A stretch of 54,975 nt of DNA from Candidatus Wildermuthbacteria bacterium (GTDB taxonomy: Bacteria > Patescibacteriota > Minisyncoccia > Minisyncoccales > UBA10102). This document shows positions 4,145 through 54,731 of the stretch, one piece after another. Made by a program: the position numbers and the translations under genes. Within the stretch, counting starts at the first letter, position 1; every line of letters starts with the position of its first letter. The stretch spans positions 340,323-395,297 of the forward strand of contig JACPMK010000002.1 of NCBI GenBank assembly GCA_016186115.1, read 5' to 3'. Below the pieces are notes generated by a model, which was not told the DNA's origin, did no database searches, and saw nothing but the letters and a program-made list of their open reading frames with translations.

Positions 4145-7100
4145 TTACTGATTATGAAGATCCGGAGATGATACTTCTTGCGCTGGGCTGGGTCCGCCAG
4201 CTGGTGGAGCAGTTGGTTCTGGAATTGGTTCTAGCGTTGGTTCAACTGATGGAGTAGGGCTGACTTCTGGTGTTGGGACTGGCATAGATATGGAGGTAGG
4301 CGTGGGTGCAGGTTCCTCGACTGGTGAAGGCGCGGGAGTTGGGGTTGGTACAGAAGTTGGGCTTGGAGTAATAGTGGGCGATGGCATGGGAGTTGACTCA
4401 AGAGTTGCCTCTGGCGTTGGGGCTGGCGCAGGCGTAATGGTCGGTTCCTCGACTGGGGAAGACGTGGGGGTTGGATTTGCGGCATTGTCGGCTGGTTCCT
4501 CGTCCTCTTGGGCCGGCTCTTCTATCGGAGGAGTTGACGTAGGGATTGGAGTCGGAGTTGGGGTTACTTCAGGAGTCGGCTCTGGCGTCGGCTGGTTTTC
4601 TTCGTGATACACGGGAACCTGATCCACCACAATGGGCTGGCCATTGAGATATTGAACCTTATCGCATTCTCCGCGGACTTTTCTCCATTCTCCATTTTCA
4701 ATCCACGTGCAGTAGGCCTCTCCTGTCGCGCTGTCAACCATTTCTAATTTTTCTATTTTTGCGGTCTTTACGGATATTCTATCGAATAGCCACTCCCCTG
4801 CTGTTTGAATGCTGCCGGTAAAACTCGCAATAGTTTGTTTGATATTCTCATTGAAACTCCCAAGAAATGCTCCGAAAAGATTTTCTTTATTTTCTTGCTG
4901 CTTTGTATCTTGAAACAATGCTGCGGTATCCATTGATCCCAATGACCAGTGAGGATTTACAAATATAAGCACTTTGCCGTCTATGCTCTTTTCGTCATAG
5001 GGCTCTAGCGCAATTCCAATCACTCTGCCCGGTTGTGTTGCCTTCATTGCAACTCCGGGTGTTGAGGAAGACGTAAGATAATCGCCTGCTGCAATAGACC
5101 CGTTCTCCAAAGAAACCTTCACTTTTACGCGGCCGTTCAGAGCAACTGGCAAAGGACTATCTTCGGTTTTAATATTATACCCAATGCTGTTAAAATCGCC
5201 TGCATCGCTGGGATTCGAAATAACGCCAATAATATTTTGTTGATACGCTTCCGAGCTTTTCACGAGTTTTGCAAGCTGACTACCGGTCGTAGTTGTCGTG
5301 AGATCCTGCCCCGGCGCTATAACATCGCCTGGTTCCACTCCTTCTCTTGTTGCATACATTTCCATATAGTCAGCAGTTACCGAACCCACGCAATCCTGAA
5401 TCTGCGAGGCGCCAGAAGCATCCCAGCACAACGCATTGGTATAGCTGCCCCCGGTGCCGAACACCGCGGTAATATTTCCATCCGAATCCACGCTGAATAC
5501 TTCGGCAGGGGCAGAATCAAGTATCTGAAACTTGCTCGCTCCTGCCGCATCAAGCAATTGAATAGAGCTATTACCAGAAGCTCCCGACATATCGATAGAC
5601 ATATAGGTAACACTGCTTTTTGAAAGTTCGAACTTGGTAGGAGCATCAATCACGAGATATGGCTCTCCGCTTTCGGAGACAACAGCAAAATCAATTTCTC
5701 CGGCAAGAGCACCTGAGAGCAAAGTCAACGCAGGAAATGCCACCGTAGTGCCCGGCGTTACAATACGTACTCCCCCATCGCTTCCTGTTCCATTGAATAC
5801 CCAGCCGCCAGCAACCGAAGTTGAAAAATCCGAAGTGCTGGTATTGGGAATGTAAGGGCCGGGAGACGATGCCTGCTCAAACTGTGCACCCCATGCATAA
5901 AAAGAATCGTCTGCAGTTGAGCTCGCGTTAATATTTAAAGTCATCTGGGTGGTGCCCGTAGAACCAGTGTGCGTAACCCAATATCTTCTCCAGTTTGTGG
6001 GAAGAGTAATTGTAGTTGTAGTTGTGGCAGGGCTACTCCCATTATCAGTAAGATCAATGGAAATCGTTGTTCCGGCAGCCACGTTGTTATTTTTAATCCA
6101 TATACTGAATGTCCATGTTTCTGAAGCATCGGCATCGGTTTCGATTTGAGAAGCAGTTCCGTTGGCAGAAGTATGATTCACTCTATCTGCGTATAGCATG
6201 CCATTTGGAGCAGCGATTGCATTATTAGTTACCGTAACCCCAGTAAGAGTCCAGCTTCCAATTGCTTCGCTGTTGTTTGCCTGATTCTCCAGTCGCCCGA
6301 ATCCGCCAAGGGGAGTCATGAGAGTGCCGCCGTGCATGAGAAAATCGTTGGTGTCGGCAAGCGTAAGTTCAACTTCTGGGTTCGTTGTTCCAATTCCCAC
6401 ATTGCCTCCGAAATAAGAATCTCCGGCATTCACCGCAAGCGACAAGGCATCAGTAATGGTCACTGATCCTCCCGCGCTTGGCGCACCCGCAATGGTCAGG
6501 GTTGCTGCCTTGTCCACGGTTACCGAAGAAGAATCTGTAATCGTTGGGACGTTAATCAATATGGAATCCATCTGGCTTGTCACCTGTGTGGTGCCGGTAA
6601 GAGTGATGGTAGGTGGGGTGACTGTCAATGTCGTATATTCTGCGCCTGCAGCAGAAGCAATGGTGGGGGCTGTTCCTGCCTTAAGCGTTAAGGCAGAGAC
6701 CGCTGACGTAGCTGTCCTTGTATCTAAAACGAAGTATGCATTTGTGCCATCGGTGATATCAAGGGCTGCAGCAGTGTTGGAAGCTGTAATAATATCAAGT
6801 GCGGCTCCCGAAAATGTGAGGTTGCCAGTAAGCGTGAGGCCCGTAAACTGCGGAGATGCACTTGTTCGAATATCCTGAATCGTATCGAGTGTAGTCGTGG
6901 TGATAGCAATACTATTCCCCGGAGCCAACCACGTTACTGCGCTTTCGCTATCATCCCAGAAAAGAATCCTATCCGCATTAGGATCGGTCAATGAGGCGCC
7001 AGTTCCACCATCAGCCAATGCAACATCGGTTCCACCTGCACGATACACATAATTTCCGCCAATTGTAACTGCTGTAGGAATATCAGTAGCAATAGAAGGA

Positions 7101-9625
7101 ATGCCTGTTGCCCCAGTTACCAATATTCCGTTATTGCCAGTAGTCAAACCGCTGACAGTATTTGCTGCAGAAGAATAAAGAATTTGATTAATGGTAGTAG
7201 TTGCGGGGTAGGTCGCAGTTGACCACGAGGGAGCTGCACTTGAACCAGATAACAAAACTTGATTGGCGGTAGCAGTTCCCGAAAGAATTGCCAGGGCTGA
7301 AGCTCCGGAATAGACAATGCCACCGGTTGAAGCGGTTAAGGCCGCTCCCGTACCTCCATTGCCAAGGGTTAATGCAGAAGAAAGGGTGAGGGCTGCAAAA
7401 GTTGGAGAAGAAGTTGTAAGCACGTTTTGGTCCATGTCATACAACTCATTCGCGCCCTGACCAGTATCAATGGTAGCAAAGGTTACAGCAGCTGTGGTCT
7501 TTACTGACTGATCAAACCAGTCGTTAAGAGTAACATCTCCGTTAATGGTGATAGTTCTCGCGGCATCTCCTGTGGTTATTGTAAGATTGCGGTCGGCAGT
7601 TAAGTTAGAACCGGGGACAATTACCAAATCATGGGATGCGTCGGTATCCAAAATATGAAGACCGGCATTGAGAGCAGTGACGATAGCATTGTCAATGGAA
7701 AACGTGGGCGTGTTCCCTGCGGTCAATGTTACGAACGTGGTGTAGGCTGCTCCATCAACATCGTATGCCTGCAATACAAGGGTGTTATCGACAGATGTGC
7801 TGGTGCGCAACGCCCCGGCTGTGCCCAATGTAAGGTTCCCAAAAGTAACCGAGGAAGATGTCGCGATGCTTTGTGGCAAGGAAAGGGTTACGTTTCCGTT
7901 AGCTCCCCCGTCGGTAACAGTAATTTGATTTGCTGTTCCTGTCAGAATACGTTCGGCAGAAAGGGTTGAATCTGCAGCGAGTAACACGTATTGGGCATCT
8001 GTTGGAGCTCCTCCTGAAGCCGAAACCGTTGTCCAACTCAAAGTTCCAGAACCATTTGTCGTCAAAACCTGGTTGCTCGTGCCGTCAGCGCTCGGCAGAG
8101 TCCAAATCACATTGCTGGCAATGGAATCAGGGGCCTTAAACCCGATATAATTTGTCCCATTGGCTGCAAGCTCGAGAAGTCGCACCTCTCCAGTATTGCC
8201 TGTGGAAGTGCTGAAGGGATCAATCTGCAACGCAGCGGCAGCTGATGGCGTCAGATGCAGTAAACTGCTCGGACTTGCATTTCCAATCCCAATTCTGTTG
8301 TTGGAAGCGTCTATATATAATGTATTGGAGTCGATGTTGAGGGAATTTTGGAGAGAGACCGTTGAGGCATTAATGGTGATCGAATCTGCTGCTGCGTCGC
8401 CAAGAGTCGTAGTCCCAGTACTGCTTATGCCAGCCGCTGAAACGCTTCCCGAAGTGCTGATATTACCAGCATTGCTCACCGTGAGATTTCCACTCCCGAT
8501 ATTCAAAGAAGCGAAATTCCCCGCTATATCCAATTTTGTGTTCGGAACATCTGCTATTGCAAAAGAACCCAAACTAAATCCTCCTCCTGCTCCCTGCTCA
8601 CCCGTTGGCCCTTGTGGTCCCACTGCTCCCTGCGGCCCCTGTTGCCCCGCCGGTCCTTGCGGGCCTTGAGGGCCTGCCGGGCCTTGTGGCCCCGGCACTC
8701 GTTGCATAATTTTTATTTCTGCCATCTCTCCTTCTAGGGTACTAATCTTTTGCTCAAGTGTGCTTGGGGAAACAGTTGGTATAGGAGTAGATATAAAAGT
8801 GGGGGTAGGCGTTGTGTCGACGGCTATCCTTTGCGCAATTTGTTTTTGTTTTATAGAAGTAGCAGAAGGAGAAGGTCTAGAAACAGATGCGGTATTTGGC
8901 GAAAAAGCATTTTGAAATTTTTGACTTGCTTTGTGAACAAGATCACCAACTGATCCCACTAATGTATAATTACCAGAAGAAATACTAGCAATATTGGCTT
9001 GCGCATTATCATCAAGTTGCTGGACAATTGTATTTGCTGAACGAGCAAAATGCGCTGCGTATTTTTCAGTGTTCTTTCCAAATTTTTGCACTACGTCATT
9101 GAGTACTTGCGCCACATCTAACGTGGCTCGTACGATTTGTCTTGAGTAATCATATGTTTGAAAAAGCACATTTCCTGCTTCCTGCGGCGTTGGAACAACT
9201 GCATTAATCGAACTCCAGTTAAATTTTGTAGCTCCGGCGCCCATGCCGACAAATACCAAGAATACCAGAGAAGTAATTCCAATTCGCAATAATTTTGCAA
9301 AATCCATTATTGTGCCGCGAGACAGTGGAGTATTTTCTTTCTGTTCTTTTGGAATTGCTAAAGTTTCTGTGGGGAGATTTTCTGGAGGAGGAGCGAGCTT
9401 TAAAATTTTTGGAGTGATTGGTTTTTGAAGTTGTTTTTCCTCTAGCTCTTTTTTATAACCCTCTGCTTTTTGAATGTACTCAAGAAGCCATTCCTTTGTC
9501 GTAAACCATGTCTTGCCTTTTTTTATTGCGTTCAATTTTCCTTGTCTTGCGCGCAAACTCAAATACTCTTGCGAGTAGTCGCAATATTGGGTTGCCTGCT
9601 GAAGAGAGATATGCATTTCTTCCAT
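4145..9625 (-). CDS. Giant membrane-anchored fibre protein: N-terminal HTH, TM helix, coiled coil, collagen-like Gly-X-Y, S/T/A/G-rich fibre, peptidase-G2/IMC-like domain, Pro/Thr tail
   Basis: ORF 4145..9646 (GTG). ATG 9625 is the likelier start. HTH-like ISLQQATQYCDYSQEYLSLRARQGKLNAIKKGKTWFTTKEWLLEYI. TM segment LLRIGITSLVFLVFVGMGAGA. 13 G-X-Y triplets. TADYMEMYATREGVEPGDVI...NGRVKVKVSLENGSIAAGDYLTSSSTPGVAMKA. C-terminal PT-rich ~150 aa. Confidence 0.85.
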   Translation of the reverse strand: MEEMHISLQQATQYCDYSQEYLSLRARQGKLNAIKKGKTWFTTKEWLLEYIQKAEGYKKELEEKQLQKPITPKILKLAPPPENLPTETLAIPKEQKENTPLSRGTIMDFAKLLRIGITSLVFLVFVGMGAGATKFNWSSINAVVPTPQEAGNVLFQTYDYSRQIVRATLDVAQVLNDVVQKFGKNTEKYAAHFARSANTIVQQLDDNAQANIASISSGNYTLVGSVGDLVHKASQKFQNAFSPNTASVSRPSPSATSIKQKQIAQRIAVDTTPTPTFISTPIPTVSPSTLEQKISTLEGEMAEIKIMQRVPGPQGPAGPQGPQGPAGQQGPQGAVGPQGPTGEQGAGGGFSLGSFAIADVPNTKLDIAGNFASLNIGSGNLTVSNAGNISTSGSVSAAGISSTGTTTLGDAAADSITINASTVSLQNSLNIDSNTLYIDASNNRIGIGNASPSSLLHLTPSAAAALQIDPFSTSTGNTGEVRLLELAANGTNYIGFKAPDSIASNVIWTLPSADGTSNQVLTTNGSGTLSWTTVSASGGAPTDAQYVLLAADSTLSAERILTGTANQITVTDGGANGNVTLSLPQSIATSSSVTFGNLTLGTAGALRTSTSVDNTLVLQAYDVDGAAYTTFVTLTAGNTPTFSIDNAIVTALNAGLHILDTDASHDLVIVPGSNLTADRNLTITTGDAARTITINGDVTLNDWFDQSVKTTAAVTFATIDTGQGANELYDMDQNVLTTSSPTFAALTLSSALTLGNGGTGAALTASTGGIVYSGASALAILSGTATANQVLLSGSSAAPSWSTATYPATTTINQILYSSAANTVSGLTTGNNGILVTGATGIPSIATDIPTAVTIGGNYVYRAGGTDVALADGGTGASLTDPNADRILFWDDSESAVTWLAPGNSIAITTTTLDTIQDIRTSASPQFTGLTLTGNLTFSGAALDIITASNTAAALDITDGTNAYFVLDTRTATSAVSALTLKAGTAPTIASAAGAEYTTLTVTPPTITLTGTTQVTSQMDSILINVPTITDSSSVTVDKAATLTIAGAPSAGGSVTITDALSLAVNAGDSYFGGNVGIGTTNPEVELTLADTNDFLMHGGTLMTPLGGFGRLENQANNSEAIGSWTLTGVTVTNNAIAAPNGMLYADRVNHTSANGTASQIETDADASETWTFSIWIKNNNVAAGTTISIDLTDNGSSPATTTTTITLPTNWRRYWVTHTGSTGTTQMTLNINASSTADDSFYAWGAQFEQASSPGPYIPNTSTSDFSTSVAGGWVFNGTGSDGGVRIVTPGTTVAFPALTLLSGALAGEIDFAVVSESGEPYLVIDAPTKFELSKSSVTYMSIDMSGASGNSSIQLLDAAGASKFQILDSAPAEVFSVDSDGNITAVFGTGGSYTNALCWDASGASQIQDCVGSVTADYMEMYATREGVEPGDVIAPGQDLTTTTTGSQLAKLVKSSEAYQQNIIGVISNPSDAGDFNSIGYNIKTEDSPLPVALNGRVKVKVSLENGSIAAGDYLTSSSTPGVAMKATQPGRVIGIALEPYDEKSIDGKVLIFVNPHWSLGSMDTAALFQDTKQQENKENLFGAFLGSFNENIKQTIASFTGSIQTAGEWLFDRISVKTAKIEKLEMVDSATGEAYCTWIENGEWRKVRGECDKVQYLNGQPIVVDQVPVYHEENQPTPEPTPEVTPTPTPIPTSTPPIEEPAQEDEEPADNAANPTPTSSPVEEPTITPAPAPTPEATLESTPMPSPTITPSPTSVPTPTPAPSPVEEPAPTPTSISMPVPTPEVSPTPSVEPTLEPIPEPTAPPAGGPSPAQEVSSPDLHNQ
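8579..8695 (-). repeat. Collagen-like Gly-X-Y triplet repeat (13 triplets) inside the giant CDS
   Basis: Translates to PGPQGPAGPQGPQGPAGQQGPQGAVGPQGPTGEQGAGGG, preceded by the heptad-like stretch LEQKISTLEGEMAEIKIM. Confidence 0.85.
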
Positions 9626-9656
9626 AATAAAAACAAAACGATACACCTGTTATTCA

Positions 9657-14150: not shown

Positions 14151-14669
14151 CTAATAATTATACAGCTCTGCAATAACTGCTTCGGTGCGCTGCTTTCCTC
14201 TGTCTTCCCAGAAAACCTCGACCGTTACTGTAATTTTATTGCCCCCCGCGCCATCAACTGTGGTAATTTTTCGCTTAAAAATCCTGGGTGTTCCGGCATC
14301 ATAGCTATACATATTATTCGCATCCAGATTTAAAAAAGTATTGCCATATGCGACTAGACTCGCATCATTATAATCACCCTGGCAACCGCTTAAGCAATCT
14401 GTTGGCGAAATTCCATCATCCCAATCGCTACCCGAAATAAAATTCCCATCCCGGATATTGCGCGTGATTTCCGCACCCTCCTGCGCAAGATACACCGCGA
14501 TAAGCCGATTGGTGTCGGTTGCGCTTACTGAAACAAGGAACGTCATCAAACCAAATGCTCCGCCGATCCCGATCAAAACCACAAAAAATGCAAGTAAAAC
14601 TTCGATCAGCGTGAATCCACTCGAAGCTCCCGGCGAAGTATTTAGTATCTCGTATTTGGTATTTGGCAT
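14151..14669 (-). CDS. Prepilin-type minor pilin (PilV/GspI-like)
   Basis: ORF 14151..14711 trimmed to ATG 14669. MPNTKYEILNTSPGASSG|FTLIEVLLAFFVVLIGIGG. The leader is encoded by heptamer repeats. Confidence 0.7.
   Translation of the reverse strand: MPNTKYEILNTSPGASSGFTLIEVLLAFFVVLIGIGGAFGLMTFLVSVSATDTNRLIAVYLAQEGAEITRNIRDGNFISGSDWDDGISPTDCLSGCQGDYNDASLVAYGNTFLNLDANNMYSYDAGTPRIFKRKITTVDGAGGNKITVTVEVFWEDRGKQRTEAVIAELYNY
14638..14665 (-). repeat. Heptanucleotide repeat block (NAAATAC type, 4 units) encoding the prepilin leader
   Basis: Minus strand: CAAATAC CAAATAC GAGATAC TAAATAC, starting immediately after ATG-C. Confidence 0.7.
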
Positions 14670-14830
14670 AAGGGCTAGAAGCGAAAGCCACGTTTTACAT
14701 GGTGAGAGCAAGGAATTTTTCTGCAGACGCGTAGGTGCCCACGTTGAGCTACGCGAAATGTGGGGTAAAGCGCAAGGAAAAATTTCTTGCTCGAACTATT
14801 AAGAATGGGTGAGGTTGAGATAATCATAGC

Positions 14831-32127: not shown

Positions 32128-34257
32128 ATGAATTTTACAACGCCGCTCTCGGCCGTTCCGCGCATAGGGCCGGTCTTTCAAAAACGCTTGAAAAAATTGG
32201 GGATCACTACGGTTCGTGATCTGCTTTTTTATTTTCCCAGAACGTATGAAGACCTCTCCAAAATCACTCCGATAGCAGAGATAAAAGAAGGAACATTTTA
32301 TTGCATTGCAGGAGAAATTCTTGAAATAAGCGAGGAACGGACATTTAAAAAACGCATGCATCTCACTCATGCCATTGTCCGAGATGATACGGGAACCATA
32401 AAAGCTCTCTGGTTTAACCAACCCTATCTGCCGCAAACCCTCCGAAAGGGAGAGAGAATGTACCTTGCGGGAAGAGTAGTGCGCGACGCCAAAGGTATTT
32501 ATCTTTCCAATCCCATCTATGAAAAATTTGCTGAAGGAGAAATGAATCTTATTCACACCGGAAGAATCATCCCGGTATATCCTGAAACCAGAGGTATTTC
32601 TTCGCGATGGCTGCGTTCAATTATACGCATTATCCTGCAAGGATTAACAGAAAAAATTGAGGATGCCATTCCCGAGAAAATTACGCAAGAAGAGCGTTTT
32701 CTACCCCTGCAAACAGCGCTCAAACAAATTCATTTTCCTGATACGTTAGAAAATATCGAAAAAGCAAAAAAACGCTTTTCATTTGAAGAACTCTTCTTTA
32801 TTTCGCTTTTCGTATTAACCGAACGAAAAAAAATCGCAAGCGTGAAAGCGGTTCCCATTCCCTTTGATGAGCAACTGATGAAAAAATTCACCTCCTCGCT
32901 CCCCTTTCAACTTACGGATGCCCAGAAAAAAGCTGCATGGCATATTTTGAAGGATTTGGAAAAGCCGCGGCCCATGAACCGGCTTTTGCAAGGAGATGTG
33001 GGCTCGGGAAAAACCGTGGTCGCAACCATGGCGTCGCTTGCTGTCACCAAGAAGGGATACCAAGCAGTATTTATGGCACCAACAGAAATTCTTGCCCAGC
33101 AACATTTTAAAACCGTTGGGCAATTGCTTGCGCCGTTCAAAATTACGGCTGGCCTTTTGACGGGCAAAGCCGACCGGTTTATTTCTCCCAAACTCCCCAA
33201 TGACTACATTGAAATTTCGAGAAAAAAATTATTGGAAAAAGCGCTTAAAGGAGATATTGATATTCTCATTGGCACTCACGCCTTAATTCAAAAAGAAGTA
33301 CGATTTGGCAAATTGGCACTGGTTATTGTTGACGAACAGCATCGTTTTGGAGTAAAGCAAAGAGCGCAATTGCTTCGTCACGCCCAACTTATTCCTCATT
33401 TGCTTTCTATGACCGCAACGCCTATCCCCCGCACCTTGGCGCTCACCATTTATGGCGATCTTGATCTCACGCTTATTGACGAACTCCCCAAAGGAAGAAA
33501 AAAAATCGAAACGCGGATTATTTCTCCCCAAGAGCGGGAGCAGGCCTATCAATTTATTGCAAAAGAAGTAAAACAGGGGCATCAAGTATTTGTCATTTGC
33601 CCGCGTATAGAAAAATCCGAAATCCGAAATCCGAAATCCGAAACTCCTAACAAAAAAAATGGCTGGTCGGAGACAAAAGCGGTAAAAGAGGAATACGAAA
33701 AGCTATCCAAAGAAATATTCCCCAACCTGCGCATAGCAATGCTGCATGGAAAAATGGCGCAAAAAGAAAAGGAAGAAATTATGCGCAAATTCAAATTCGG
33801 AAAAATTGATATCCTTGTTTCAACCTCGGTGGTCGAAGTGGGGGTCGACATTCCCAATGCCAGCGTCATGATGATTGAGGGGGCTGACCGCTTTGGTTTG
33901 GCCCAACTTCACCAGTTCCGAGGCAGAGTGGGACGATCAGATCAACAATCGCATTGTTTTCTTTTTACCGAATCATCCTCGCGAACAGTTGCGGAACGAT
34001 TACGGGCGCTGGTACGTTTGGAAAGCGGGTTTGAGCTGGCCGAAAAGGATTTACATATGCGCGGCCCCGGAGATTTTAACGGGGTAAAACAATGGGGCAT
34101 ACCCGACTTTGCAATGCAGCAACTCTCAAATGTAGCACTGGTTGAAAAAGCAAGAGAAGCAGCAAAAAATATTCTCGAAAAAGATATTGCTTTGCACACT
34201 TATCCCCTGCTGAAAAAGAGAGTGGAGGAGTTACGAGAAAAATTACACCTCGAGTAA
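32128..34257 (+). CDS. recG: ATP-dependent DNA helicase RecG
   Basis: 709 aa. Wedge/OB N-terminus. Motif I GDVGSGKT, DEQHRFG, SMTATPIPRT, helicase C motifs QLHQFRGRVGRS. Confidence 0.9.
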   Translation: MNFTTPLSAVPRIGPVFQKRLKKLGITTVRDLLFYFPRTYEDLSKITPIAEIKEGTFYCIAGEILEISEERTFKKRMHLTHAIVRDDTGTIKALWFNQPYLPQTLRKGERMYLAGRVVRDAKGIYLSNPIYEKFAEGEMNLIHTGRIIPVYPETRGISSRWLRSIIRIILQGLTEKIEDAIPEKITQEERFLPLQTALKQIHFPDTLENIEKAKKRFSFEELFFISLFVLTERKKIASVKAVPIPFDEQLMKKFTSSLPFQLTDAQKKAAWHILKDLEKPRPMNRLLQGDVGSGKTVVATMASLAVTKKGYQAVFMAPTEILAQQHFKTVGQLLAPFKITAGLLTGKADRFISPKLPNDYIEISRKKLLEKALKGDIDILIGTHALIQKEVRFGKLALVIVDEQHRFGVKQRAQLLRHAQLIPHLLSMTATPIPRTLALTIYGDLDLTLIDELPKGRKKIETRIISPQEREQAYQFIAKEVKQGHQVFVICPRIEKSEIRNPKSETPNKKNGWSETKAVKEEYEKLSKEIFPNLRIAMLHGKMAQKEKEEIMRKFKFGKIDILVSTSVVEVGVDIPNASVMMIEGADRFGLAQLHQFRGRVGRSDQQSHCFLFTESSSRTVAERLRALVRLESGFELAEKDLHMRGPGDFNGVKQWGIPDFAMQQLSNVALVEKAREAAKNILEKDIALHTYPLLKKRVEELREKLHLE
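33613..33647 (+). repeat. Heptanucleotide tandem repeat inside recG (AAATCCG x4 plus AAACTCC)
   Basis: Four perfect AAATCCG units and one degenerate unit. Translates to (E)IRNPKSETP within a segment absent from E. coli RecG. Confidence 0.85.
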
Positions 34258-35889: not shown

Positions 35890-35964
35890 GGTCCCGTCGT
35901 CTAGCCCGGCCTAGGACACCAGGTTTTCATCCTGACAACACGGGTTCGAATCCCGTCGGGACCG
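35890..35964 (+). tRNA. tRNA-Glu (anticodon UUC)
   Basis: GGTCCCG..GTCTAG..GGACA, anticodon loop TTTTCAT, T-arm ACGGGTTCGAATCCCGT. Closely parallels E. coli tRNA-Glu. Confidence 0.85.
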
Positions 35965-35983
35965 CTGCTTCGCCTCCACCCCC

Positions 35984-37069
35984 ATGAAAATTCTTGGCAT
36001 TGAAACATCCTGCGATGACACAGGAATTGCAATTGTTGAAGTAAGCGTCCGCCATGGGCGGACGCGTTTTAAAATTCTCTCCAATATCATCTCTTCGCAA
36101 GTCGAGATCCATAAAAAATACGGGGGAGTATATCCCATGCTTGCAAAAAGAGAGCACGAAAAAAATCTTCCCATCGTGCTCGATCAAGCGCTCCGTCAAA
36201 TGAACATCAATTCTATCCCATCGCATCAAATTGATGTTGTTGCGTGTACGCAGGGGCCGGGCCTTTCCCCTTGCCTATGGACAGGGCTCAACTTTGCAAA
36301 GAATATTGCCGAAGAATGGGATGTTCCCCTAATTCCCGTTGATCACATCGAAGCCCATTTGCTCATTGGTTTGCTTTTTCAAAATACTCAATACCAAATA
36401 CGAAATACTAAATACTTTCCTGCGGTTGCTTTGATTGTTTCTGGCGGGCACACCCAGCTCGTGCTCGTAGAAAAAATGGGCAGTTATAGAATTATTGGCG
36501 AAACAAGAGATGACGCCGCCGGAGAAGCATTCGACAAAACCGCAAGAATTTTAGGACTGGGTTTCCCCGGTGGCCCCGAGATTGCAAAAATAGCATCTCA
36601 ATACAAGATACAAAATACTAAATACAAAATACGTCTCCCTAGGCCGATGCTGCACACCAAAGATTACGATTTCAGTTTCTCGGGATTAAAAACCGCGGTG
36701 CTGTACGACTACCAATCGCGCTCGCCAAGAGAAAGAAGGTCCAAAGCATACATTCAAGCAATGGCAGCAGAAATCCAACAGGCAATTACAGATGTGCTCA
36801 TTGCAAAAACCATTCGAGCTGCTGAAGAATACCGCGCGAAAACAATAATTCTTGGCGGAGGGGTGGCAGCAAATGTAGAACTCCGCCAACAGCTTTCATA
36901 CCAAATACAAAATACTACATATAAAATACAGTTCCTCATTCCTCCTCCGCATTTGTGTACGGACAATGGCGCCATGATCGCAATCGCCGGCTATTTTAAA
37001 TTTTTGCACAAAAAATATATCGGTCCGGAAGCTGAAGTTGAAGCCAAGCCCAATTTAAGGATAGAATAA
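35984..37069 (+). CDS. tsaD: tRNA N6-adenosine threonylcarbamoyltransferase TsaD
   Basis: 361 aa. LGIETSCDDTGIAIV, GPGLSPCL, HIEAHL, VSGGHTQL, GEAFDK, FSFSGLKT, CTDNGAMIA. Confidence 0.9.
   Translation: MKILGIETSCDDTGIAIVEVSVRHGRTRFKILSNIISSQVEIHKKYGGVYPMLAKREHEKNLPIVLDQALRQMNINSIPSHQIDVVACTQGPGLSPCLWTGLNFAKNIAEEWDVPLIPVDHIEAHLLIGLLFQNTQYQIRNTKYFPAVALIVSGGHTQLVLVEKMGSYRIIGETRDDAAGEAFDKTARILGLGFPGGPEIAKIASQYKIQNTKYKIRLPRPMLHTKDYDFSFSGLKTAVLYDYQSRSPRERRSKAYIQAMAAEIQQAITDVLIAKTIRAAEEYRAKTIILGGGVAANVELRQQLSYQIQNTTYKIQFLIPPPHLCTDNGAMIAIAGYFKFLHKKYIGPEAEVEAKPNLRIE
36383..36417 (+). repeat. Heptamer block 1 in tsaD (5 x AATACNN)
   Basis: AATACTC AATACCA AATACGA AATACTA AATACTT. Encodes QNTQYQIRNTKY. 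Confidence 0.8.
36598..36632 (+). repeat. Heptamer block 2 in tsaD (5 x NNAATAC)
   Basis: TCAATAC AAGATAC AAAATAC TAAATAC AAAATAC. Encodes QYKIQNTKYKIR. Confidence 0.8.
36895..36929 (+). repeat. Heptamer block 3 in tsaD (5 units)
   Basis: TTCATAC CAAATAC AAAATAC TACATAT AAAATAC. Encodes SYQIQNTTYKIQ. Confidence 0.75.
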
Positions 37070-37080
37070 GGATATACCAC

Positions 37081-39210
37081 ATGCTAGAACTCGCAAAAAC
37101 CTACAACGCAAAAGAAATTGAAGACAAAATATACAAGCTCTGGGAAAAGAGCGGATTTTTTAATCCGAATAAGTTGCCCAGAACATACAAAAAGCCGTTC
37201 ACTATTATCATGCCGCCGACTAATGCCAATGGCTCTTTGCATGCGGGACACGGTTTAGTGTTAACGATTGAAGACATTATGATTCGCTATAAAAGAATGC
37301 GGGGGTATAAAACATTATGGCTTCCCGGTTTAGATCACGCCGGATTTGAAACTCAAGTTGTGTACGAAAGACAACTGGAAAAAGAGGGCCGGTCGCGTTT
37401 CACCATGAAGCCGGGGGATCTCTATCAAGAAATCATGGAGTTCACCATGCGCAACAAAAAGAACATCGAAGACCAAACAAAAAAGATAGGATCATCTTGC
37501 GATTGGTCGCGCGAAAAATTCACGCTCGATGCCGATATTATTAAAACCGTGTATTCCACATTCAAGAAACTATACAACGATGGTTTGGTGTACCGCGGAA
37601 GAAGAATCGTTCACTGGTGTCCCAAGCACCAGACATCTCTCTCTGATTTGGAAACAATCGATAAAAAGCAGACAGACAAATTGTACTATTTGCAATACGG
37701 CCCCTTTACCATAGCCACTGCCCGCCCCGAAACCAAATTCGGCGATAAATATGTAGTTATGCATCCCGACGACAAAAGATATAAAGATTACAAGCACGGC
37801 CAGAAAATAGAGCTGGAATGGATAAACGGCAAGGTTACTGCGACGGTCATTAAGGACAAGGCAATTGACATGTCTTTTGGCACGGGAGTAATGACTATTA
37901 CTCCCTGGCATGATGCGGTTGACTTTGATATCGCCGAACGCCATAGCTTAGACAAAGAACAAATTATAGATTTTCAAGGGCGCCTACTGCCCATTGCCGG
38001 AGAATTTGCCGGAATGAAAATTGGAGAAGCTCGCCCCAAAATCGTTGAAAAATTGCAGGCGAAGGGGCTACTCGTAAAAATAGATGAAAATTATACGCAT
38101 GTTGTAAAAACCTGCTACAAATGCGGCGCGCTCATCGAGCCCCAAATAAAAGACCAGTGGTTTGTGAAAATGAAACCATTGGCGGAACCCGCCATCGAAG
38201 CAATTAAGAAAAATAAAATCAGGTTCATACCGGCCCATTACAAAAAAATCTCCCTCCACTGGCTACAAAATATTATTGACTGGAACATTTCAAGACAAAT
38301 TGTCTGGGGCATTCCCATACCCGCAAAGATTTGCGACAGTTGCGGAGCCGGAATTGTCGATATTGAGAACAAAATTTCTGCTTGCCACAAATGCAATGGG
38401 TCCGTCCGAAAAGAAACCGATACCTTTGACACCTGGTTTTCTTCCGGACAGTGGCCGTTCGCCGCACTGGGATACCCTTCCTCCAAAGATTACAAAACAT
38501 TCTACCCGACTCAAGTCATGGAAACTGCGGGAGAAATTATCTTTTTCTGGGTATGCCGCATGATCATGCTCGGCCTCTACGTAAGCAAGAAAATTCCCTT
38601 TGAAAATGTATACCTCCATGGCTTGGTGCTGGACGCGAAAGGCCAAAAAATGAGCAAGAGCCGAGGAAATGTGATTAACCCCTTGGATTTAACGGAGAAG
38701 TACGGAACAGATGCATTTAGAATAGGAATGGTTGTGGGAAATACGCCGGGTACTTCTCTGGCGTTAAACGAAGACAGAATTCGCGGATACAAGAATTTTG
38801 CGAACAAGATTTGGAACGCTTCCCGATTTGTGCTCATGAATGTGAAAGATTACAAACCAGGTACGCGAGTAGTTTTAAATCAAAAACAGAAAAAAACGCT
38901 GGCTGATTTTAAAAAAGAGGTAAAAGAAATAGAAAAGCTCATGGATTCTTTTAAGTTTTATATTGCTGCAGAAAAAATCTACCACTATTTTTGGCACACA
39001 TTCTGCGACAACATTATAGAGGAAAATAAAACAAAATTATCTGGCACGGCAAAAGAAAGAAGGGCAAGCCAATATCTGCTTTTGGAGATTCTTTCTTCTT
39101 CCTTAAAGATTCTTCACCCTTTCATGCCCCTTATAACGGAAGAAATCTACCAGCAATTGCCCCTGAAAAATAAGAAGAAAACATTAATGATCGAACAATG
39201 GCCACAATAA
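37081..39210 (+). CDS. valS: Valine--tRNA ligase (short form without C-terminal coiled coil)
   Basis: 709 aa. HIGH-type PPTNANGSLHAGHG, KMSKSRGN, LHPFMPLITEEIY near the C-terminus. Confidence 0.9.
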   Translation: MLELAKTYNAKEIEDKIYKLWEKSGFFNPNKLPRTYKKPFTIIMPPTNANGSLHAGHGLVLTIEDIMIRYKRMRGYKTLWLPGLDHAGFETQVVYERQLEKEGRSRFTMKPGDLYQEIMEFTMRNKKNIEDQTKKIGSSCDWSREKFTLDADIIKTVYSTFKKLYNDGLVYRGRRIVHWCPKHQTSLSDLETIDKKQTDKLYYLQYGPFTIATARPETKFGDKYVVMHPDDKRYKDYKHGQKIELEWINGKVTATVIKDKAIDMSFGTGVMTITPWHDAVDFDIAERHSLDKEQIIDFQGRLLPIAGEFAGMKIGEARPKIVEKLQAKGLLVKIDENYTHVVKTCYKCGALIEPQIKDQWFVKMKPLAEPAIEAIKKNKIRFIPAHYKKISLHWLQNIIDWNISRQIVWGIPIPAKICDSCGAGIVDIENKISACHKCNGSVRKETDTFDTWFSSGQWPFAALGYPSSKDYKTFYPTQVMETAGEIIFFWVCRMIMLGLYVSKKIPFENVYLHGLVLDAKGQKMSKSRGNVINPLDLTEKYGTDAFRIGMVVGNTPGTSLALNEDRIRGYKNFANKIWNASRFVLMNVKDYKPGTRVVLNQKQKKTLADFKKEVKEIEKLMDSFKFYIAAEKIYHYFWHTFCDNIIEENKTKLSGTAKERRASQYLLLEILSSSLKILHPFMPLITEEIYQQLPLKNKKKTLMIEQWPQ

Positions 39211-53136: not shown

Positions 53137-53213
53137 GCGCGTGTAGCTCAGTTGGTTAGAGCATGGCTCTTATAAAGCCAGGGTCGATGGTTCGAATCCA
53201 TCCACGCGCACCA
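53137..53213 (+). tRNA. tRNA-Ile (anticodon UAU)
   Basis: GCGCGTG acceptor, TAGCTCAGTTGGTTAGAGC D-arm (Ile-like), anticodon arm TGGCT-CTTATAA-AGCCA, GGTTCGAATCC, encoded CCA. Confidence 0.8.
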
Positions 53214-54731
53214 AATTGGACTTCCTGATTTTTTGGAAGCCAAAGCGATAGTTTGCTCGCCGCGCCTCGCGGCGCGGCTCGCAAGGAATTGGGCGGTAAA
53301 ATCAAACGGCGGGGCGAAATCCCAAGAAACATTTTTTTCGGAAATGAGGCGGTTCGTTCCAATTTTTTGCGCAAAATGAGCAATCTCTTGCGGAGATTGC
53401 TCCGAGGCGATTTTTCCCGCTTGAATTAAGGTATTTATGTAATCCCGCATTGGTTCGTTCCACCCGCTCATCCGCTTTCGCAGAAGCGTGTCCTGCTCGC
53501 CCTTCAAGGCGATTTTTTGTTGCACCAAACTTTCTTTTTTTCGTCTGTAAGTTTCCTCGTCAATAAGATTGTCTAAATATCCTTCAAGCAGTTTATCCAG
53601 TTTTTCTTGAAGGGCGAAAATCTTTTTTCTATTCGCTTCTGCGAAAGCGTCTGCTGATTGGGCTTGCGATTTTTCTTCGCGCTCCAATTTTTTCAGCATT
53701 TCTTTTGACCAATCGTCAGGCAAAGCAATTGTTTGCGACTTTTCAATGATTTGCTTTTGCAATTCGCTTTCTTGGATATACTTTTCGGCGCAAGCCCCGT
53801 GTTTGCGTGTGCAACGATAATATCGGTAAAGTCCGCCGTTGCCCTTGGCGAATTGCGCCGTGAACATTGAACCGCAAGAGCAATTGAAAAGTCCGACAAA
53901 CGGAAAATCATGCCGTTTCTTGCTCTTGCGGGGCTTGCGCCTGTTTGCCAAAACTTCCTGCACTTTCGCAAATAATTGCTTTGAGATGAGCGGGCGGTAT
54001 TTGCCCTCGTGGGCTTCGCCGTTCCAGCGCATAATGCCGATATAGCGATCATTGGTCAAAAGATTTTCAATTGAATAATTGGAGCGCGTTTTTCCGCCGC
54101 CAAGCTCGGCGAGGCGAGCCGAAATTGATTTGAGCGTACGCCTGCCGGTCGCAAATTCCTCGTAGATTTTCTTAACGATTTTTGCTTCTTTCGGCTCAGG
54201 CACAATATTTCGCAAGCGGTGGTCATAGACATAGCCGAAAGGTTTTTGTCCGGGCCATTCGCCTCGCCGCAGCTTGGCGCGGTTCCCTCGTCGAACATTT
54301 TCGGCCAGATTGTCCACATAGTATTTGGCGTTTGATAATCCAATAGCGAGAAAAAATTTTCCCGACGGGTTATTTTCAAACGCGAAAGTTGGAAATTTTA
54401 GACCGCCAAGTTTTCCGGTGTCCAAAAGATATATTAAACGCCCGCCGTCGACGGAATTTCTGGACAATCTGTCCGGATGCCATGCCAAAATACCGACAAG
54501 ATGAGGAAGACCGCCGTCAATTTTATTGAGCATGGAATTGAAAATTTCTCTGCCCGGAACTTTGGCAGTTTTCTTTTCAATAAATGTTTCTATGATTTCT
54601 AAACTTTCTTTTTCGGCATATTCTTTCAATTCCGTAAGTTGCGCTTCCAAGCTCAAAACTTGGCGGTCTTCCTCATCGGTGCTTTTACGAATGTAGAGAA
54701 AATATTTTGTTGGTTGCGGTAGTGTATTCAT
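53148..54731 (-). CDS. Large serine recombinase (resolvase catalytic domain, recombinase domain, zinc ribbon, coiled coil); 3' end uncertain
   Basis: 527 codons. YIRKSTDEEDRQVLSLEAQ...HPDRLSRN catalytic region. CSCGS...YYRCTRKHGAC zinc ribbon. The last ~25 codons read antisense through tRNA-Ile (..WMDSNHRP..), so the true C-terminus is probably upstream or context dependent. Confidence 0.85.
   Translation of the reverse strand: MNTLPQPTKYFLYIRKSTDEEDRQVLSLEAQLTELKEYAEKESLEIIETFIEKKTAKVPGREIFNSMLNKIDGGLPHLVGILAWHPDRLSRNSVDGGRLIYLLDTGKLGGLKFPTFAFENNPSGKFFLAIGLSNAKYYVDNLAENVRRGNRAKLRRGEWPGQKPFGYVYDHRLRNIVPEPKEAKIVKKIYEEFATGRRTLKSISARLAELGGGKTRSNYSIENLLTNDRYIGIMRWNGEAHEGKYRPLISKQLFAKVQEVLANRRKPRKSKKRHDFPFVGLFNCSCGSMFTAQFAKGNGGLYRYYRCTRKHGACAEKYIQESELQKQIIEKSQTIALPDDWSKEMLKKLEREEKSQAQSADAFAEANRKKIFALQEKLDKLLEGYLDNLIDEETYRRKKESLVQQKIALKGEQDTLLRKRMSGWNEPMRDYINTLIQAGKIASEQSPQEIAHFAQKIGTNRLISEKNVSWDFAPPFDFTAQFLASRAARRGEQTIALASKKSGSPIWCAWMDSNHRPWLYKSHALTN
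53239..53357. repeat. Left arm of 119-nt inverted repeat flanking the recombinase
   Basis: The reverse complement equals 54857..54975 at 118/119 positions; the single mismatch is 53332 vs 54882. Contains the GC hairpin CGCCGCG-CCT-CGCGGCG. Confidence 0.9.

Follow-up and report, generated by a model that had tools for sequence, protein, structure and literature searches.

Short in-frame heptanucleotide arrays in the tsaD gene of a Candidatus Wildermuthbacteria genome and its Patescibacteria relatives

In this work we describe three arrays of five heptanucleotide units that lie in frame in tsaD, the gene for the threonylcarbamoyltransferase subunit of tRNA t6A37 modification, in a 54,975-nt stretch of contig JACPMK010000002.1 from a Candidatus Wildermuthbacteria bacterium (this whole stretch is called the window). 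The explanation that we favour, at a probability of roughly 0.55, is that the blocks are short heptanucleotide simple-sequence repeats (4-5 units) that were born as DNA, become a normal portion of the enzyme on translation and are tolerated as passengers without demonstrated function. Comparison with related loci shows varied units at the same six permissive TsaD sites across Patescibacteria, and whole-block gain and loss of arrays between relatives with 8-17% protein divergence.

An earlier note on this DNA had described the three five-unit blocks in frame in tsaD, and they were recovered by direct reading, by Tandem Repeats Finder (TRF), by the TIGR03723 profile and by translation (Table 1). 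All three belong to a single open reading frame (ORF). Array 1 is composed of AATAC-TC, AATAC-CA, AATAC-GA, AATAC-TA and AATAC-TT; array 2 of TC-AATAC, AA-GATAC, AA-AATAC, TA-AATAC and AA-AATAC; and array 3 of TT-CATAC, CA-AATAC, AA-AATAC, TA-CATAT and AA-AATAC. TRF placed them at 36382-36416 (5.0 copies, 82% matches), 36600-36632 (4.7 copies, 84%) and 36898-36930 (4.7 copies, 73%), respectively. With up to two mismatches, the three-unit search pattern AATACNNAATACNNAATAC matched the window 13 times, compared with 0.07 times in dinucleotide shuffles (largest shuffle value 1); nine of these matches fall in tsaD and three in a fourth array at 14638-14670 on the minus strand. Six period-7 arrays were observed in the window versus 1.1 after codons were permuted inside ORFs. 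The periodicity resides in the nucleotides and is no by-product of amino-acid choice. The tsaD arrays are thus repeated head to tail, in at least three copies and beyond chance, in the manner of long prokaryotic simple-sequence repeats, and all five arrays of the window sit in ORFs, not mainly in intergenic DNA or 5' untranslated regions as short tandemly repeated repetitive (STRR)-like repeats do. Variation among the window arrays is concentrated at unit position 6. A conserved 5-nt core with free spacers was rejected as a general rule, as mismatches were not clustered by phase in 22 imperfect arrays (0.70 versus a null of 0.67, p=0.41).

The fourth array lies in a prepilin-like leader whose host ORF has a weak PilV-type match (E=2.1e-7, under the cut-off). 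It shares 27 of 28 bases with the core of array 1, including the spacer order CA, GA, TA, TT. A similar likeness, about 25/28 identity with the spacer order likewise kept, links arrays 2 and 3. A perfect array in recG has a unit, AAATCCG, unlike that of the tsaD arrays. Since leader peptides are cleaved off, the prepilin leader looks like a highly permissive site. AATAC-type arrays that make up most of the leader, ending shortly ahead of the G^FTL(I/T)E prepilin cleavage motif, were also seen in two Pirellulales loci (L077 6878-6903 and L091 924-949).

Codon choice in the arrays tracks the heptamer and not the usage of the genome. In the four AATAC arrays of the window, 6 of 6 Ile codons are ATA (15% over the genes of the window; P about 1e-5) and 6 of 7 Tyr codons are TAC (34% over those genes). 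We then compared the DNA of eight orthologue loci at the TsaD loops, as the earlier note had proposed. Lag-7 identity was at least equal to lag-21 identity, and the loops hold true heptamer arrays built of other units: site 1 is (AATTTTC)4.3 in locus L122, while site 2 is a perfect (AAATTCG)4.7 in L127, of AAATTCC type in L123 and of CAAGATA type in L125. Perfect (AAATCAC)4.4-4.6 arrays occupy the same TsaD sites in other lineages. Loop peptides of 120 homologues correspond to such units read in three phases (NFQFSIFNFQ, FEIRNSKFEIK, YKIQDTKYKIQ, FSISNSQFSIK, YKLKTINYKL), the YKIQDTKYKIQ block being found at site 2 or at site 3 depending on the lineage. Moreover, one repeat gives rise to three different predicted local structures in the window TsaD. 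Because the arrays dictate the codons, orthologues carry other heptamers, one repeat yields three structures and blocks are gained or lost between near relatives, we conclude that the origin lies at the DNA level, in agreement with the earlier suggestion of a DNA-level process over protein-level selection.

The window TsaD scores 367.9 bits against TIGR03723 (cut-off 296.1), with residues 3-340 on profile positions 1-313/314, and matches T. maritima TsaD (6nak) at E=6.4e-76. An AlphaFold2 model built with 50 homologues has a mean predicted local distance difference test score (pLDDT) of 91.1 and a predicted template modelling score (pTM) of 0.90. H121, H125, D327 and N328 are invariant in a 50-sequence alignment, and the HxxxH metal-binding and C-terminal [CS]TDN motifs are kept despite the inserts. 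Alignment to 6nak bears out the loops to which the blocks had been assigned: site 1 follows HxEAHLL, site 2 lies between GGP and LPRPM, and site 3 precedes PP..LCTDN, the three being longer than in T. maritima by 6, 4 and 2 residues. In the model, block 1 forms a loop of the lowest confidence (pLDDT about 67), block 2 a coil, and block 3 the end of helix 298-309 together with strand 316-318 (pLDDT 92-96). The loops named in the earlier note are thus correct, but block 3, as modelled, is not a floppy loop. The possibility that each 33-nt array is an autonomous beta-hairpin is not supported by the structures predicted for blocks 2 and 3.

The modal length of the site 2 loop is 19 residues with an array versus 16-17 without, site 3 has two common lengths, 27 and 25 residues, and within the lineage sites 2 and 3 show a net gain of +2 to +3 residues. 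Loop lengths are thus held near fixed values, and arrays therefore mostly overwrite loop sequence. Of the two actions that had been suggested, colonising or replacing loops, it is replacement that the data favour, net addition being small.

At short time scales the arrays did not change in unit number. The runs that hold this tsaD are groundwater metagenome samples from 2017 and 2020 (four runs), and the gene is identical in both years. A variant strain, roughly 98.7% identical, differs by 15 substitutions and zero indels, and the sole strain single-nucleotide polymorphism within any array is 36909 A>G, at a spacer position of array 3. The exact TsaD protein occurs on 8 contigs, and its 90% cluster is a single sequence. 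The unit-number polymorphism that the earlier note had suggested looking for was not seen in the four metagenome runs or in the variant strain, although these are assembler contigs, in which rare variants could be missed. The arrays are therefore stable at strain and population scale. These observations bear directly on whether the arrays could serve as contingency loci, phase-variation switches that toggle tsaD by gain or loss of units in the manner of neuO. Gain or loss of a single unit of period 7 does shift the frame, as the earlier note correctly stated, and neuO provides a precedent for such a change within an ORF (PMC13001214). However, tsaD is universal and normally essential, the arrays have merely 4-5 imperfect units (73-84% matches), and neither the absence of indels in four runs from 2017-2020 and in a diverged strain nor the uniformity of the protein across contigs and within its cluster is what a switch would produce; we regard this explanation as close to refuted.

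Between more distant relatives, 83-92% identical in protein, nearly all indels occur at these loops, and they occur as whole elements. Homologue P0025 has four extra AATTTTC units (28 nt) compared with P0034, whose protein is 88% identical, together with a 1-nt gap 14 nt upstream, which looks like a compensated frameshift when the two genes are aligned. This new perfect array has the unit of an older array, a degenerate one that lies 190 nt further downstream within that gene. Similarly, P0015 carries a 60-nt array block that is missing in P0007. Presence or absence in frame between relatives at tolerated surface sites, a hallmark of elements like the Rickettsia palindromic elements (RPE), is thus found here.

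Arrays of this kind are not confined to the window. A TsaD-profile scan of metagenome contigs provided 80 further loci, which were split by similarity to the Patescibacteria set into group A (Patescibacteria-like; 39 loci, 515 kb, including the window and the eight orthologue loci) and group B (other bacteria; 47 loci, 484 kb). TRF detected 69 period-7 arrays in group A and 28 in group B, and 55 and 28 arrays, respectively, of periods 4-12 except 7; period 7 accounts for 69 of the 131 TRF arrays in group A. Group A arrays lie in ORFs of at least 100 residues in 63 of 69 cases versus 90% of random 32-nt windows, and group B arrays in 19 of 28 versus 92%. It follows that Patescibacteria-like loci tolerate heptamer arrays in coding DNA, whereas other bacteria exclude them. 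A pattern scan across phyla, which indicates breadth and not frequencies, found AATAC-type arrays at 119 loci or more, in Bacteroidota, Ignavibacteria, Chloroflexota, cyanobacteria, Planctomycetota and Patescibacteria; among the matches listed, they are often just 5' of a start codon or in prepilin leaders.

Within group A, the arrays are strikingly concentrated. Of the 69, 44 are inside tsaD, which makes up 8.3% of the DNA (binomial P about 1e-30). Per 100 kb, tsaD has 103 arrays, the 2.3 kb that follow it (valS in annotated loci) 17.8 and all other positions 1.5-4.9, whereas the profile of group B is flat (3.5-13.5; tsaD 4.3). At least one detectable array is present in 20 of 39 group A tsaD genes, some having up to four. 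They recur at six TsaD sites, namely 0 (after SCDDT.I.I), 0b (before ID.IAVT.GPG), 1, 2, 2b (after LKTAVLY) and 3, and site 2 is array-bearing in many relatives. The second most frequent host among relatives is valS, where perfect arrays lie between WYIKY and VATTR, (AAACTCA)4.6 in L125 (8499-8530) and (AAAAATC)4.9 in L127 (11707-11740); the window ValS has no array at this site. Units within one genome are closer to each other (mean rotational Hamming distance 2.04) than those of different genomes (2.68; permutation p<2e-4), and the distance is 1.85 within tsaD versus 2.19 between genes of one genome. Outside Patescibacteria, arrays were found directly 5' of a tsaD-like start (MIILGIES) in L032 1533-1558 (Halalkalibaculum) and L177 56-87, and within TsaD site 3 in L156 10889-10921 and L176 10833-10863; these tsaD-linked cases are compatible with chance at the sampled density.

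We provisionally attribute the tsaD hot spot to an old founder array and short-range spread, which fits, but is not proven by, the decay of density with distance and the P0025 case. Other causes were considered and rejected. A nearby replication origin or terminus is not indicated, since no GC-skew switch occurs around 31-37 kb. A t6A/ANN-codon sensor in tsaD is likewise not indicated: ANN codons make up a share of 0.49 in tsaD arrays and an equal 0.49 in the arrays of other genes, which leaves no tsaD-specific ANN signal beyond A-richness. Such a sensor would, in addition, yield positive rather than homeostatic feedback.

The concentration in tsaD and valS, with none in other bacteria, also raises the question of whether the arrays are cis-acting nucleic-acid elements, that is, unstructured A-rich, G-poor tracts of the tsaD-valS unit that are selected because, as RNA or DNA, they are bound by a factor peculiar to the lineage or affect translation or decay. 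In keeping with such a role, the arrays have a strong sense-strand asymmetry, are predicted to be fully single-stranded in RNA and share units within a genome, while other phyla have arrays directly 5' of start codons, including the tsaD-like starts in L032 and L177, and regulation has been proposed for TAACTGA repeats and Nostoc heptamers. Yet presence varies between relatives that are 88-92% identical, about half of the group A tsaD genes have no detectable array, units differ widely among genomes, positions track protein loops and not fixed places in the mRNA, and there is no known binding factor; we consider a cis-acting role distinctly unlikely. Given the approximately 20-fold gene-specific excess, the tendency of one genome's arrays to share units and the frequency of young perfect arrays, all otherwise unaccounted for, we also considered that the hot spot reflects, instead of passive tolerance, either a dedicated, locally acting Patescibacteria process that writes genome-specific arrays into the tsaD-valS unit beside tRNA-Glu, or selection for the tracts or their peptides as a regulatory or diversifying module of t6A. 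This is possible, if on balance unlikely.

Under the passenger explanation, an array would be born or renewed by slipped-strand or template-switch copying, the source probably often being an array a few hundred bases away. Selection would retain those versions that restore the frame, if needed with a nearby compensating indel of 1-2 nt, and the survivors would be free of stops in all three phases in which the heptamer is read. The A-rich, G-poor strand would serve as sense, giving a peptide (K, N, S, Q, I, F, T) that suits a solvent-exposed loop of roughly fixed length. Point mutation would then erode the array until it is replaced. Several of these filters have visible counterparts. The sense strand of arrays in ORFs is.49 A,.28 T,.17 C and.06 G, and the residues encoded are chiefly K, S, N, I, F and Q, of which K is the commonest. 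A pure (AAATACT)n hits TAA in one of three phases, and in the window the T-unit is always read AAT-ACT-AAA. T-rich arrays are few, and they fall in hydrophobic segments of membrane proteins. At L127 13370-13395, L140 16190-16219 and L142 8741-8762 these segments are probably membrane-spanning (e.g. FLFLILNIFF, FLLLLFFIFF), and the T-rich arrays mirror the A-rich ones in the loops of soluble proteins.

Several observations weigh against this explanation. Stepwise slippage cannot build an array of 4-5 units in an essential gene, because steps of 1, 2 or 4 units shift the frame, and hence a multi-unit event or a copied block must be assumed. Ongoing slippage was not directly observed, and no polymorphism was seen. 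Arrays overwrite prior loop sequence, and simple insertion predicts otherwise. Tolerance alone would be expected to favour genes under less constraint and cannot account for the roughly 20-fold excess in tsaD over nearby pilins, surface proteins and hypothetical genes, and founder-plus-spread is weakly tested by the unit distances within tsaD and between genes of one genome. Finally, spacer order recurs, between array 1 and the pilin array and between arrays 2 and 3, as does the unit AATACTA, which looks like the copying of whole blocks of about 30 nt, or some constraint.

Block copying could also be the work of a dispersed mobile mini-element of ~30 nt, copied by a dedicated transposase, a reverse-transcriptase-type or a nuclease-coupled system, with the loops merely being where insertions survive. 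Such an element would account for near-identical separate copies that preserve spacer order, for the YKIQDTKYKIQ block at site 2 or site 3 according to lineage, for genome-specific unit families and for the entry of other small palindromic elements into the same loops. On the other hand, flanks, terminal repeats and target duplications are not shared among the copies, nor is any candidate enzyme linked to the arrays (the sole recombinase of the window is a serine recombinase beside a tRNA gene). Their units vary continuously among genomes, and away from tsaD and valS they are no denser than in other bacteria. We therefore hold a mobile element of this kind to be very improbable.

The composition of the peptides raises the further alternative that the loops are adaptive at the protein level, forming surfaces on tRNA-handling enzymes that bind nucleic acid or replace a partner, with heptamers merely the mutational supply of Lys/Asn/Ser-rich loops. 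The chief hosts, TsaD, ValS and RecG, are all nucleic-acid binders, K is the residue that arrays most often encode, and site 2 is filled in a large share of homologues at a fixed loop length. In T. maritima TsaD, the tRNA D-stem is contacted by helix alpha7, residues 210-223 (PMC13276492), and site 2b directly follows this helix. Nevertheless, the window arrays are not basic, with 2 K/R per 12 residues, and blocks 1-3 are off the described tRNA-binding elements. Many arrays are perfect DNA repeats, hence young rather than refined, near relatives manage without them, and a single repeat serves three different local structures. Adaptive loops are, in our judgement, rather unlikely.

Heptamers are not the only repeats in these loops. 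At site 2 of L124 (orthologue P0097), two in-frame palindromes, CCTAAGCT.AGCTTAGG, encode PKLSLG, and at site 3 of the same locus a 33-nt hairpin (CCCCGTACC..GGTACGGGG) lies inside a heptamer array and is missing in P0049, which is 83% identical. In-frame inserts of 20-44 residues occur at TsaD loops in P0020, P0030, P0052 and P0087 (site 2), in P0064 and, at site 0b, in P0052; examples such as SGKLSEAVWHGPAKGGQTAESATPERPLGRKRGDSRKQHSERHN and RGARTRRSPELVEGRRGE are missing in relatives about 90% identical, and from their sequence these inserts look like translated GC-rich repeat elements. With several kinds of repeat DNA in the same loops, it follows that TsaD loops act as landing places for small repeated DNA. 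The heptamer arrays themselves do not have the hairpin architecture of an RPE-like element. A structured RNA was considered and rejected, also as a cause of the hot spot: the arrays fold unpaired, z-scores are -0.18 or higher in four of five stretches, and Rfam finds tRNAs only. The stretch of array 2 gives a z-score of -1.32, owing to pairing in its flanks. In the RNA runs that were searched for the gene, tsaD was found in none.

The features of the window to which we refer are collected in Table 1. The closest named TsaD proteins are from Patescibacteria (Parcubacteria-type), and the genes follow the order recG, a glycosyltransferase-like gene, tRNA-Glu(UUC), tsaD and valS. In most Patescibacteria-like loci (L120-L154), tRNA-Glu(UUC) is located 20-60 nt 5' of tsaD, mostly in divergent orientation; the window and L138 differ in that the tRNA gene is co-directional with tsaD, 19-23 nt before the start codon.

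Table 1. Positions of the arrays in the window, their host genes and adjacent genes.
Feature	Positions	Strand	Remarks
Array 1, site 1	36383..36417	+	five AATACNN units; residues 133-144 (QNTQYQIRNTKY); after the HxxxH metal motif
Array 2, site 2	36598..36632	+	five NNAATAC units (one GATAC); residues 206-217 (QYKIQNTKYKIR); between GGP and LPRPM
Array 3, site 3	36895..36929	+	five degenerate units; residues 305-316 (SYQIQNTTYKIQ); before PP..LCTDN
tsaD	35984..37069	+	tRNA t6A37 threonylcarbamoyltransferase subunit, host of the three arrays; TIGR03723, 6nak match, AlphaFold2
Fourth AATAC array	14638..14670	-	codons 2-11 of a type IV prepilin-like leader (MPNTKYEILNTSPGASS, then GFTLIE); pattern match and ORF
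recG array, (AAATCCG)4.4	33609..33651	+	100% identity; encodes KSEIRNPKSE in the recG frame, directly behind the CPRIE motif; TRF
recG ORF	32128..34257	+	857 bits against NF008168
tRNA-Glu(UUC)	35890..35965	+	ends 19 nt 5' of the tsaD start; context only
valS	37081..39210	+	11 nt 3' of tsaD; without an array in this genome

Other features of the window were recorded in passing. The end of tRNA-Ile(UAU) (53137-53213, plus strand) is abutted and overlapped by a large serine recombinase with Resolvase, Recombinase and zinc-ribbon domains (53148-54731, minus strand), and an integrated element may have its border there. A (GGTGTT)22 array at 175-308 on the minus strand encodes a Pro-Thr linker, and collagen-like GPQ/GPA triplets are encoded at 8607-8686 on the minus strand, within an 1833-residue ORF (4145-9646) that has no Pfam match.

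Altogether, the phenomenon is real, arises at the DNA level and is lineage-wide, and it is allied to known kinds of repeat, namely prokaryotic heptanucleotide repeats, the NeuO repeat and in-frame Rickettsia elements. It provides a clean natural case of non-coding-type repeat DNA turned into protein in a universal essential enzyme, and with a unit of 7 nt, a length expected to suit coding least of all. The filters involved (frame restoration, stop-free units, strand choice and loop length) can be read from the arrays themselves. Patescibacteria break what is otherwise a general rule, as the other sampled bacterial loci deplete heptamer arrays from ORFs, and behind the hot spot in tsaD and valS there could be a mutational mechanism that acts locally, or a function. 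In practical terms, tsaD serves as a marker gene when these lineages are annotated or placed in phylogenies, and loops with arrays make its divergence and indel counts look higher than they otherwise would; the natural variants with and without arrays are ready material for work on the tolerance of TsaD loops.

Heptanucleotides are described, in the passages of PMC4679880 on Mrazek and co-workers, as the commonest long simple-sequence repeat in prokaryotes, for which slippage has been proposed. The earlier note had placed such repeats in cyanobacteria, mostly in intergenic DNA, which is correct, yet they are known far beyond that phylum. Like the STRR and Nostoc heptamers of cyanobacteria, the TAACTGA repeats of Beggiatoaceae and long simple-sequence repeats in general, the tsaD arrays are tandem 7-nt repeats with genome-specific units, over-represented and spread over many phyla. 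The cyanobacterial and Beggiatoaceae heptamers, however, are mostly intergenic or 5' of start codons, whereas the tsaD arrays are in frame in conserved genes and focused on one gene. A full-text search found no report, within the literature covered, of in-frame heptanucleotide arrays in Patescibacteria genes. Among translated heptanucleotide repeats, the closest precedent in mechanism is the neuO gene of the E. coli K1 prophage CUS-3, which has an AAGACTC repeat and is in frame only if the repeat number is divisible by three (PMC13001214). As in tsaD, a tandem heptanucleotide lies in an ORF, is read in three phases to give a 7-residue peptide repeat, and permits a full-length product only when the frame is kept. 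The neuO repeat, however, runs to 3-53 units, lies at the 5' end of its accessory gene and is a hypervariable on/off switch, whereas the tsaD arrays are 4-5 degenerate units in internal loops of a core enzyme and are fixed in the population.

Two further comparisons concern repeat DNA within conserved proteins. Plasmodium falciparum has low-complexity inserts rich in Asn and Lys. There too, slippage-prone DNA of an AT-rich genome gives hydrophilic loop inserts in conserved enzymes, but the organism is a eukaryote, its repeats are mostly triplets or homopolymers and they occur genome-wide, whereas the tsaD arrays are centred on one gene. RPE, reportedly described by Ogata et al. in 2000, are said to be selfish DNA lying in frame in protein-coding genes. 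They are dispersed palindromes of about 100-150 bp, whereas the tsaD arrays are tandem heptamers of about 33 nt with no predicted hairpin; both, however, are repeat DNA without a protein-level origin that lies in frame in conserved essential genes at tolerant surface positions. In some relatives the TsaD loops with arrays also harbour palindromic mini-elements of the RPE sort. In-frame selfish DNA such as RPE is the nearest evolutionary counterpart of the tsaD arrays.

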